Positions 42,734 to 44,535 of a stretch of 64,000 bases of DNA are shown piece by piece (the stretch's first letter is position 1; every line of letters begins with the position of its first letter). Source of the stretch: Fibrobacteria bacterium (GTDB taxonomy: Bacteria > Fibrobacterota > Fibrobacteria > UBA11236); assembly GCA_043732185.1 (NCBI GenBank), contig JAYTHY010000052.1, forward strand, positions 30,828 through 94,827. The letters are read 5' to 3'. Position numbers and translations under genes: made by a program. The notes beneath the pieces are model-generated. The model was not told where the DNA came from. It was given only the letters and a program-made list of their open reading frames with translations, and ran no database searches.

Positions 42734-42949
42734 ATGTTTGGTCGACTTGGACCCATGGAACTTGTCATTATCTTATTGATCGTCATCCTACTTTTCGGTG
42801 GAAAAAAGATTCCCGAAATAGCCAAGGGGCTTGGCAAAGGCATTCGTGATTTCAAATCTTCTATGGCAGGTACGGCTGACGCCGAAGTCGAAACTAAAAG
42901 TTTGGATAAACCCGATACTACTTCCGACTCCGGAAAACCTAAAGTCTAG
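42734..42949 (+). CDS. tatA: Twin-arginine translocase TatA
   Basis: GPMELVIILLIVILLFGGKKIPEIAKGLGKGIRDFK; AGGAGG RBS. Confidence 0.96.
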   Translation: MFGRLGPMELVIILLIVILLFGGKKIPEIAKGLGKGIRDFKSSMAGTADAEVETKSLDKPDTTSDSGKPKV

Positions 42950-43006: not shown

Positions 43007-43735
43007 TTGGACGCTGAACTAACATTTTGGGATCATATTCACGAACTGCGTTCGCGCTTGATAAAAATCATGGCAGGCGTTTTTATTGGCAGTTGTATAG
43101 CCTATTTCTTCTGGCAAGAAATTTGGGCCGTCCTCGCCTATCCCTTAACCAAGCAACATCTCAAAGTGGATCTCATTGCCACTTCACCGATGGAAACTTT
43201 TACAACCAGTTTAAAAATGTCCGTCATTTCTGGGGTTATTCTTGCATTTCCCTGGGTCATGTGGCAGGTATGGTGCTTTTTGGCGCCGGGGCTGTTTAAA
43301 AAAGAACGGCATGTTTTTGCCATTGCCTTCACTGCATCCATCATCATGTTTATTGTTGGAGCCGCCTTTGCTTATTTTGCAGTTTTGCCCGCTGGCATTC
43401 TTTTTCTTGCGACATACACTAACGGAGCCATTACGCAGAGCTGGCGCCAGGGAGAATTTGCGTCCTTTATCAGCCAGTTCCTGTTGGCCTTTGGGATCAT
43501 ATTCGAGTTACCGGTTCTGGCTTTTGTATTGGCATTTATGGGACTGATTACGGCAAAAGGTATGTGGGGGTTTTTTCGCTATGCCATCGTCGTTATTTTT
43601 ACTGCTGCGGCCATTTTAACTCCTGGCCCGGATCCGGTTTCCCAAATAATGATGGCCATTCCATTGCTCATTCTCTATCTCCTATCGATTGCCGTTTGCG
43701 CTTTGGCACAAAAAAGGAAAGGGGTAGCATCTTGA
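43007..43735 (+). CDS. tatC: Twin-arginine translocase TatC
   Basis: DHIHELRSRL, SPMETF, QVWCFLAPGL, FELP, AAILTPGPD. Confidence 0.95.
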   Translation: MDAELTFWDHIHELRSRLIKIMAGVFIGSCIAYFFWQEIWAVLAYPLTKQHLKVDLIATSPMETFTTSLKMSVISGVILAFPWVMWQVWCFLAPGLFKKERHVFAIAFTASIIMFIVGAAFAYFAVLPAGILFLATYTNGAITQSWRQGEFASFISQFLLAFGIIFELPVLAFVLAFMGLITAKGMWGFFRYAIVVIFTAAAILTPGPDPVSQIMMAIPLLILYLLSIAVCALAQKRKGVAS

Positions 43736-44535
43736 TTTTTGATTCACTTGGTATCGGTGAGTTCGGTATTATCCTCGCCCTTGCCGTCGTCATGATCGAA
43801 CCCAAAAAACTTGGCAAGGTGATGAAGGAATTCGGAAAGTTCAAGCGAAAGGTTTTGCAAATACAAACCGAAGTCAAATCACAGCTCGACTCGATTACTA
43901 GGGAAGAAGATGCCCGCCAACGGGTGGAAGAAACTGCAAATGACAAAGTCGGCATGCGTAAATGGGGTCGCGATCAAGTACAGTCGCTTACGGCCGCGGC
44001 TAGAGTGGATGCCGCCCAAGTATTGCTGGAAAAAATTAAAGCATGGCCCACCTATTCCCAGGCAAAAGTGGTTTCATGCTTTGCCGGGACCCTGCAAGAA
44101 ATGGACACGGAACCGCTCCTTCGACAAATTCTCGCTGACGGTAAAACATTGCTGATGCCGTACATTACGCCGGTAGAAAAAAACATGTGTATGGCCAGTA
44201 TTGCCAACCTCGAACTTGACCTGGTTGAAGGGACATTTGGTATTCGGGAACCGCGAAAAGAGGCTCAAGCGGCGGGTATTGCGCCAGTTCCCAATCTCAT
44301 TTTTGTACCAGGCACCTGTTTTGACGAGCGGGGAGGCCGCCTAGGCCAAGGCCTAGGCTATTATGACCGGTATTTGGCTTCAGTTAAGGCCTTTCGGGCT
44401 GGAATTGGCTTTGACGTACAAATCACACAGAAAAATTTAGCTTTGAACCCGCATGACCAGTTCATGGACGCCATCCTATCCGAGAAACGTCTTTTGATCT
44501 TTTCAGCGCCTTCCCAATTGGCCGATGATCGGTGA
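43732..44535 (+). CDS. TatB-like N-terminal domain fused to 5-formyltetrahydrofolate cyclo-ligase
   Basis: TTG start overlaps the tatC stop (TTGA). N-terminus FDSLGIGEFGIILALAVVMIEPKKL plus amphipathic helix; C-terminus GTFGIREP, FVPGTCFD..GGRLGQGLGYYDRYL, PHDQFMD. Confidence 0.85.
   Translation: MIFDSLGIGEFGIILALAVVMIEPKKLGKVMKEFGKFKRKVLQIQTEVKSQLDSITREEDARQRVEETANDKVGMRKWGRDQVQSLTAAARVDAAQVLLEKIKAWPTYSQAKVVSCFAGTLQEMDTEPLLRQILADGKTLLMPYITPVEKNMCMASIANLELDLVEGTFGIREPRKEAQAAGIAPVPNLIFVPGTCFDERGGRLGQGLGYYDRYLASVKAFRAGIGFDVQITQKNLALNPHDQFMDAILSEKRLLIFSAPSQLADDR

Follow-up and report, generated by a model that had tools for sequence, protein, structure and literature searches.

The twin-arginine translocation (Tat) genes of Escherichia coli are arranged in the order tatA-tatB-tatC. 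A hinge glycine is highly conserved in TatA and TatB proteins, and E. coli TatB tolerates truncation of its C-terminal part without losing function. Besides this TatABC system there is the TatAC type with a bifunctional TatA, for which TatAd of Bacillus subtilis is an example. The folate enzyme 5-formyltetrahydrofolate cyclo-ligase (MTHFS) is described as a standalone protein, such as YgfA and YqgN. According to PMC13323110, only residues 1-63 of TatB are ordered in the solved complex, and the highly conserved E8 of E. coli TatB is hydrogen-bonded to T208 of TatC in the (TatBC)3 core. Here, we focus on one gene in a stretch of 64,000 nucleotides from a Fibrobacteria bacterium (assembly GCA_043732185.1, contig JAYTHY010000052.1, positions 30,828 to 94,827), which is referred to as the window. 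The gene lies at 43732..44535 on the plus strand, as do all other features of the window given below, and joins a TatB-like membrane module in frame to MTHFS. It is likely that this fusion is the TatB of its lineage, in which the usually disordered tail has been replaced by an active MTHFS.

The fusion gene comes third in its operon, after tatA and tatC. It consists of a single stop-free frame that runs from a TTG start to a TGA stop at 44533-44535 and encodes 267 amino acids, and its start codon overlaps the stop codon of tatC in the tetranucleotide TTGA (43732..43735). An earlier reading of this DNA from its letters alone (the sequence-only reading) had described one uninterrupted frame coupled to tatC in this manner, and the description holds. 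The start is placed at 43732 because relatives share a conserved MIFDSLG start; the codon at this position is TTG in the window and ATG or GTG in most relatives. The stop-to-stop frame opens upstream at 43564. A GTG at that position was considered as the start and rejected, because it lies inside tatC in a different frame and the proteins of relatives begin with MIFDSLG.

The N-terminus of the protein reads MIFDSLGIGE-FGIILALAVVMI-EP-KKLGKVMKEFGKFKRK. It comprises a short transmembrane helix (residues 8-21, 43753..43794) with E10 (43759-43761) at its N-terminal end, a hinge E23-P24 (43798..43803), and, over residues 24-71 (43801..43944), a basic amphipathic helix with a helical linker. The sequence-only reading had recognized the FD..G.GE pattern, the short transmembrane helix, the basic amphipathic helix, and a hinge that reads EP instead of GP, all of them accurately. 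The TatB-type layout of short N-terminal transmembrane helix, hinge and amphipathic helix is seen both in the sequence and in an AlphaFold2 (AF2) model computed with 55 homologues (mean predicted local distance difference test score, pLDDT, 90; predicted template modelling score 0.75). In the model, helix 8-21 is followed by a break at residues 22-23 and by a continuous helix of residues 24-84 that passes into the first MTHFS helix (block pLDDT 85-95). Residues F3, D4, G7, E10 and P24 are invariant in 55/55 homologues (alignment A1). In the rows of that alignment that were displayed, one in two of the 55, position 23 holds E, K, D or N. Fused members of a distant class keep the canonical hinge FFG(S/P)K (for example FFGSKELP and LFGPKG), and the EP hinge is a derived, lineage-specific feature of the family to which the window protein belongs.

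Profile comparisons place this module in the TatA/B family. Among TatA/B-type models, the tatB model TIGR01410 scores best for the window protein and matches residues 6-68 with E 1e-5 to 1e-6; at E<=1e-3 it picks up 54 of the 55 aligned homologues. When the window's own genome is ranked by TIGR01410, the fusion N-terminus comes first, tatA comes second, and there is no third. The sequence-only reading had noted that the operon holds no other tatB, and the same is true beyond the operon: in this 100%-complete genome no TatA/B-like gene was found apart from tatA and the fusion, and tatA is the only locus matching PF02416. The second profile, A2, was made from an alignment of 30 N-termini from loci across the phylum, and it finds solved TatB chains (9e02_F, 9.9e-12; 2mi2, 7e-9; 9e03_B and 9dzz_B, ~2e-8) ahead of bacterial TatA chains (2l16, 6.7e-6; 2lzr, 7e-4; 2mn7, 0.03). 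Taken with the matches of relatives to PF02416 given below, residues 1-70 are classed as a divergent TatA/B-family module that leans towards TatB.

E10 is the sole column that is invariant in all 30 N-termini across the phylum (30/30), and its counterpart in the alignment to E. coli TatB is E8. The presumed partner site is also recognizable. TatC of the window carries the motif LTPGPDPVSQ (LTPxPDxxSQ), in which T205 is invariant in 30/30 aligned TatC sequences and S212-Q213 is conserved. We infer that T205 and Q213 correspond to T208 and Q215 of the polar cluster of E. coli TatC, as that cluster is described in PMC13323110. When TatC (alignment A3) and the N-terminal module (A2) were modelled as a complex, the score was 0.00 in a run that had no controls, which counts neither for nor against their pairing. 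The Tat signal-peptide model TIGR01409 has two matches over its cut-off in the genome, a weak point in favour of the TatB reading.

The rest of the protein is a complete and ordinary MTHFS domain, a predicted 5-formyltetrahydrofolate (5-formyl-THF) cyclo-ligase. The domain spans residues 72-251 (43945..44484) by PF01812, TIGR02727 and fold. Residues 75-251 score 116.9 bits against PF01812 (E 1.3e-33; cut-off 27). Against TIGR02727, an NCBIfam equivalog, they score 116.3 bits (cut-off 84.9), and 55/55 aligned homologues match both models at the E-value thresholds used. By sequence, the domain matches the PDB entries 3hxt (1.3e-16), 1sou, 2jcb and 1ydm. By Foldseek, the AF2 model matches the Bacillus anthracis structure 2jcb_A (E 1.2e-17, target-normalised TM-score 0.89, root-mean-square deviation 1.9) and human MTHFS 3hy6 (E 5e-17). 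The loop RLGQGLGYYDR, from R203 to R213 (44338..44370), is intact, so the complete domain and loop reported by the sequence-only reading are borne out. Invariant in 55/55 homologues are K72, R76, E123, T126, D198, R203, G205, G207, G209, Y211 and D212. K72 and R76 correspond to human K10 and R14 by alignment offset; following the MTHFS literature, we take the invariant residues to belong to the nucleotide and folate sites, and these two and the loop residues to have catalytic roles. No second PF01812 locus was found in the 100%-complete genome, and the fusion domain is therefore presumably the only MTHFS of the cell.

A few other MTHFS arrangements were seen along the way. In genome G128 (family f5; L045, L042), a fused copy linked to tatC exists alongside a standalone MTHFS, and on the MTHFS profile the standalone copy scores higher (143 bits) than the fused one (68 bits). 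Protein P0251 (286 amino acids) is a different MTHFS fusion: its first 85 residues match YlxQ/L7Ae RNA-binding models (E 2e-6 to 1e-5), and a full MTHFS follows. In two genomes of genus g19 the MTHFS lies in open frames of 599 and 610 amino acids (G138:C219:11829-12335 and G176:C95:8556-9065, respectively) and may be fused to something else; both genomes have a separate mini-TatB. One in-frame TAG each is present in the fusion matches of L011 (G166), G027 and G047. In L011 the TAG cuts off the ~50 C-terminal residues, which lie in a frame of their own. Sequencing error, pseudogene and read-through are all conceivable explanations.

The fusion is not a peculiarity of one genome. Searching 5.8 billion proteins with a word index produced 165 matches. 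Among the 98 best homologues (E<=3e-59), 95 cover at least 94% of the query, and the named full-length homologues are all titled as Fibrobacteria, Fibrobacteres or Fibrobacterota metagenome-assembled genomes. The next 22 matches listed are standalone enzymes of 181-257 amino acids that cover 55-75% of the query. An MTHFS match is present in 195 of 201 sampled genomes of the phylum, and by a hand count over 150 of 203 rows the match begins no later than query residue 9 in at least about 90 of them; a single-protein query under-detects divergent N-termini. Forty Fibrobacterota MTHFS loci were examined with hidden Markov models (HMMs): the 20 best matches and 20 picked across families, four with partial matches. 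At 36 of the 40, tatC lies directly upstream of a fused gene, which establishes that the in-frame fusion is real. The N-terminus matches the N-terminal profile or the window N-terminus at 35 of these 36 loci, and the remaining one, L040, shows just TatA-like similarity. One of the 36, L008, comes from an unpublished genome (G194), which also enters the 201-genome MTHFS tally and the TatC tally once each, and no conclusion hangs on it.

Records outside this sample agree. In named genome records, tatC and the fused gene are found together at 10 of 10 full-length loci. Eight of these records are titled Fibrobacter-something, one 'bacterium' and one 'uncultured Bifidobacteriales bacterium' (L060). 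The match statistics of L060 equal those of the Fibrobacterota locus L019, and its title is therefore probably a taxonomic mislabel. Among the matches listed, 70 other MTHFS loci, mostly from Bacillota, Bacteroidota, Spirochaetota and Planctomycetota, have no tatC, tatA or module within 2.5 kb (0/70). An exhaustive HMM scan of 1.84 billion representatives identified 44,821 MTHFS-family proteins. Of the best 150 of these, 34 align from profile position 8 or earlier, and a TatB-like N-terminus was found in five of six further long forms. As judged from the best 150 of 44,821, the fused architecture is rare among the MTHFS family. The lineage-specific fusion proposed by the sequence-only reading thus stands, in a wider sense: by genome searches and record titles, on which the taxonomic spread rests, the lineage is most of the sampled phylum Fibrobacterota and not one organism.

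The lineages without the fusion are as informative as those with it. Wherever a standalone-MTHFS lineage was examined, one of three Tat states was seen: no TatC found, a tatA-tatC pair only, or a mini-TatB after tatC. Because each such lineage fits one of these states, the module tracks Tat and not folate metabolism or MTHFS. For example, no TatC was found in any of three genomes (97-98% complete) of genus g42, in which MTHFS is standalone, and none was found in 11 of 51 genomes of genus g11. At the g11 loci L043, L044, L047 and L048, TatA is followed by a divergent TatC without a third gene, and this pair is the sole Tat system of g11. The g11-type TatC, which is also present at L052 (G126, genus g10), matches the window TatC at just 1e-19 to 1e-24. 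In g32 (L054) there is a tatA-tatC pair only, and MTHFS is standalone.

The third state, a mini-TatB after tatC, was seen in f11 (L046), g19 (L049) and g33 (G153). The proteins have 55 amino acids, or are similarly short in g33. Those at L046:4345-4509 and L049:4248-4412 were identified with the fused-module profile, which they match at E 1e-6 and 5e-5, respectively. The two are among the shortest TatB candidates we have seen, with a transmembrane helix and an amphipathic helix alone.

A FastTree phylogeny of 118 MTHFS domains (~190 residues, midpoint-rooted; the tip L040 is mislabelled as standalone) bears on how these states arose. The standalone MTHFS of g11 falls within a clade whose fused members come from g10 and g15 (local support 0.99), and the standalone form of g32 adjoins the clade of fused f14-f18 forms (0.99). 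This fits a secondary loss of the module in g11 and g32, and for g11 the nesting indicates such a loss. Replacement of the g11 enzyme by a foreign standalone MTHFS was also considered and is less likely than truncation, since this single-domain tree groups g11 with the fused forms of g10 and g15. In some g10 genomes the tatC-fusion system coexists with a g11-type tatAC (G032, G054 and G126 each have two TatC matches; L052), which suggests that Tat was displaced in g11.

Based on these observations, the following course of events is proposed. The gene would encode a bifunctional membrane protein. Its residues 1-70 would act as TatB and assemble with TatC into the Tat receptor core. Where TatB has a disordered tail elsewhere, the chain would here pass through a helical linker straight into MTHFS, which would serve at the membrane as a 5-formyl-THF salvage enzyme. 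From homology and gene order we infer that MTHFS is tethered to the translocon. Most likely the fusion arose once, early in Fibrobacterota, from adjacent tatB and MTHFS genes. It may have been retained because the TatB tail tolerates cargo and both products are co-expressed. Later lineages would have split the fusion, or dropped its TatB part, when Tat changed or vanished.

Several results weigh against reading the module as TatB. The first concerns the profiles. The sequence-only reading had left the identity of the N-terminus to a TatA/B profile search; the TIGR01410 match supports it, and other parts of the search do not. PF02416 finds nothing at E<=1 in the window protein or in its first 73 residues, and the TIGR01410 score of 25.6-29.1 bits falls short of the 56.5-bit equivalog cut-off, so that no curated TatA/B threshold is reached. 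The weak Pfam matches that do appear, to Imm68 and AnfO (E 0.04-0.07), were dismissed as chance-level. The TIGR01410 cut-off is often missed, since just 3 of 14 control genomes exceed it. PF02416 is matched by relatives: by 8 of 55 full-length homologues at E<=0.01 and by 13 of 30 N-termini phylum-wide (best 3e-8), and 19 of the 98 best database homologues bear a precomputed PF02416 label. Because the relatives match this family and the window protein does not, TatA/B homology is supported through the relatives and not directly. The second concerns features of the module itself. The A2 profile matches the chloroplast TatA-type Tha4 chain 7b7o at 8e-11, on par with TatB. The hinge glycine is replaced by E23 in the window, so neither the Gly-Pro nor the F-G form of the hinge is present. 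The own TatA also has a Glu at the position equivalent to E10; this residue is thus a mark of the family and does not separate TatB from TatA. The third concerns the lineage. The related genera g11 and g32 manage with a tatA-tatC pair, so that TatB is not obligatory in the phylum. The fused forms do not make one clade in the single-domain tree; because this tree of a short, midpoint-rooted domain splits them, the single origin is a matter of interpretation.

The lost glycine, the unreached thresholds, and the TatAC-only arrangements of the related g11 and g32 are what would be expected if the TatB-derived module no longer took part in export and merely anchored MTHFS in the membrane, the translocon being a two-component TatAC. 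This is the alternative that survives best, and it is still unlikely. The conservation of the module exceeds what a plain anchor needs: in addition to the five residues invariant in 55/55 homologues, E10 is retained in 30/30 N-termini across the phylum. The module stands directly after tatC at 36 of 40 loci, it survives after tatC as a mini-gene where it has been split from MTHFS, and it is missing where TatC is missing.

A second alternative, which does not exclude TatB function, is that the two halves are functionally coupled. MTHFS under the TatBC core would then regulate or sense export in response to folate, one-carbon or adenosine triphosphate (ATP) state, or Tat assembly would regulate MTHFS. 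In favour of it, the fusion has been kept across most of the phylum. In addition, the linker is short and predicted to be helical (AF2 helix 24-84), so that the enzyme begins ~10 residues past the part of TatB that E. coli structures show as ordered (1-63, PMC13323110). Against it, the halves occur apart in several lineages, in which both functions are presumably kept, and the fused MTHFS keeps ordinary catalytic motifs and passes the equivalog cut-off. The literature searched holds no link between 5-formyl-THF and Tat, and we know of no biochemical connection between them. Sister lineages have, or have lost, either half independently of the other. This pattern suits a fusion that is tolerated or serves co-expression no less than it suits coupling, and the tie between one-carbon metabolism and protein export suggested by the sequence-only reading is left unsupported. 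Altogether coupling is improbable. Its most specific form, in which three MTHFS domains under the (TatBC)3 cup gate or tune docking or are switched by Tat assembly, is slightly less probable again.

It could also be imagined that one gene gives two products, a soluble MTHFS being freed by an internal start near M75 or by proteolysis of the linker. An ATG (M75) does lie at the domain border. However, position 75 is Leu in several homologues, a start at M75 would remove the invariant K72, and the linker is predicted with confidence as a continuous helix (AF2); we give this possibility very little weight. That two genes were merged by a sequencing error can be set aside, as dozens of independent assemblies, some of them complete single-contig genomes, show this same architecture, and the junction check called for by the sequence-only reading turned up no indel: Logan contigs from two further samples bridge 43696-43876 and 43864/43890-44296 with 0 differences (these contigs are only weakly independent, as one study yielded both them and the probable source sample).

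The rest of the operon is organized as follows. Its first gene is tatA (42734..42949), which encodes 71 amino acids and matches PF02416 (E 2.4e-17) and TIGR01411 tatAE (65 bits, cut-off 53.9). The second is tatC (43007..43735), which encodes 242 amino acids and matches PF00902 (E 4.1e-65); against solved TatC chains, its product gives 2e-41 for 4b4a and 1.7e-32 for 9dzz_A. The start codon of tatC is TTG in the window and in most f1-family relatives (LDSELTFWDH...). A purine-rich GGAAAGGGG at 43716..43724, 7 nucleotides before the TTG of the fusion gene, is a putative Shine-Dalgarno-like element. Upstream of the operon lies a gene resembling RNase D, with 3'-5' exonuclease and HRDC domains, and downstream of the fusion lie carA and a SpoU-family methyltransferase gene. 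A promoter scan gave 7 promoter-like sites with 2.7 expected, none of them compelling. From tatA to the end of the fusion, a terminator scan found none except one inside tatC, and an Rfam scan of the window found no RNA family.

Four same-genus genomes lack the 4-nucleotide overlap and have a spacer of 220-295 nucleotides between tatC and the fusion gene (L004:1206-1500; L007:2287-2527, L009:2290-2508 and L010:747-1017, these three on the minus strand). The spacer contains ~4 tandem GTCGGGC heptamers and, roughly 100 nucleotides on, ~4 GCCCGAC heptamers, which together make a long inverted repeat. The whole resembles a small palindromic insertion element, of which no copy lies in the window (0 matches at up to 2 mismatches).

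Both parts of the protein belong to known families and the sequences were already public. What appears to be new is the recognition of a TatB-MTHFS fusion in Fibrobacterota and of a module that tracks Tat. The sequence-only reading knew of no characterized example, and none was found: the literature searched, supplements unopened, holds no description of such a fusion. The main text of a fusion survey (PMC4921024) has no occurrence of the terms looked for; the supplements of that survey, which might list it, were outside the search.

How the fusion compares with the described systems can be summarized as follows. With TatB of TatABC (E. coli; TIGR01410; 2mi2, 9dzz, 9e02) it shares a transmembrane helix with Glu, a hinge Pro, a basic amphipathic helix, a gene beside tatC in a tat operon, and family profile matches of 1e-11 to 2e-8. 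It differs from TatB in having E23 for the hinge Gly, a sub-cut-off score, and the order tatA-tatC-tatB. The part after the amphipathic helix is disordered in the solved TatB complexes (PMC13323110), whereas in the fusion it is a folded 20-kDa enzyme. With standalone MTHFS (YgfA, YqgN) the fusion shares the model cut-offs passed, the fold, K72, R76 and the GRLGxGxG(Y/F)YD loop, and it differs by an additional N-terminal membrane module of 70 residues. With the bifunctional TatA of TatAC (B. subtilis TatAd, 2l16) it shares the module type, and the g11 and g32 genomes likewise have tatA-tatC alone. In contrast to the TatAd arrangement, the window's own genome has a separate canonical TatA, and TatAd matches the profile more weakly (6.7e-6). 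Because the separate TatA passes TIGR01411, two differentiated paralogues are present. The mini-TatBs (L046, L049) are homologous to the module, occupy the same place after tatC, and have the same Glu and a K/D-(P/A)-K hinge; unlike the fusion, they end after the amphipathic helix, and the MTHFS gene is elsewhere in the genome.

The consequence for annotation is direct. Named records label the fused proteins just as '5-formyltetrahydrofolate cyclo-ligase', and because of this the Tat systems of Fibrobacterota look like TatAC; by the comparison made here they are probably TatABC. Were enzyme and export coupled, the finding would gain greatly in importance: the cell would tie its export of folded proteins to folate, one-carbon or ATP state, a regulatory layer new to any Tat system, in a pathway that, to our knowledge, is otherwise thought to need no nucleotide. 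Short of that, the fusion is a natural experiment for Tat, in which a folded 20-kDa domain sits ~10 residues past the TatB amphipathic helix at the substrate-docking face. It thereby bounds the bulk that the receptor core tolerates, and it offers a built-in fiducial or handle for TatBC structure and localisation. With fused, split, TatAC-only and Tat-less forms in one phylum, Fibrobacterota offer a compact case of fusion, fission and displacement in a membrane machine.

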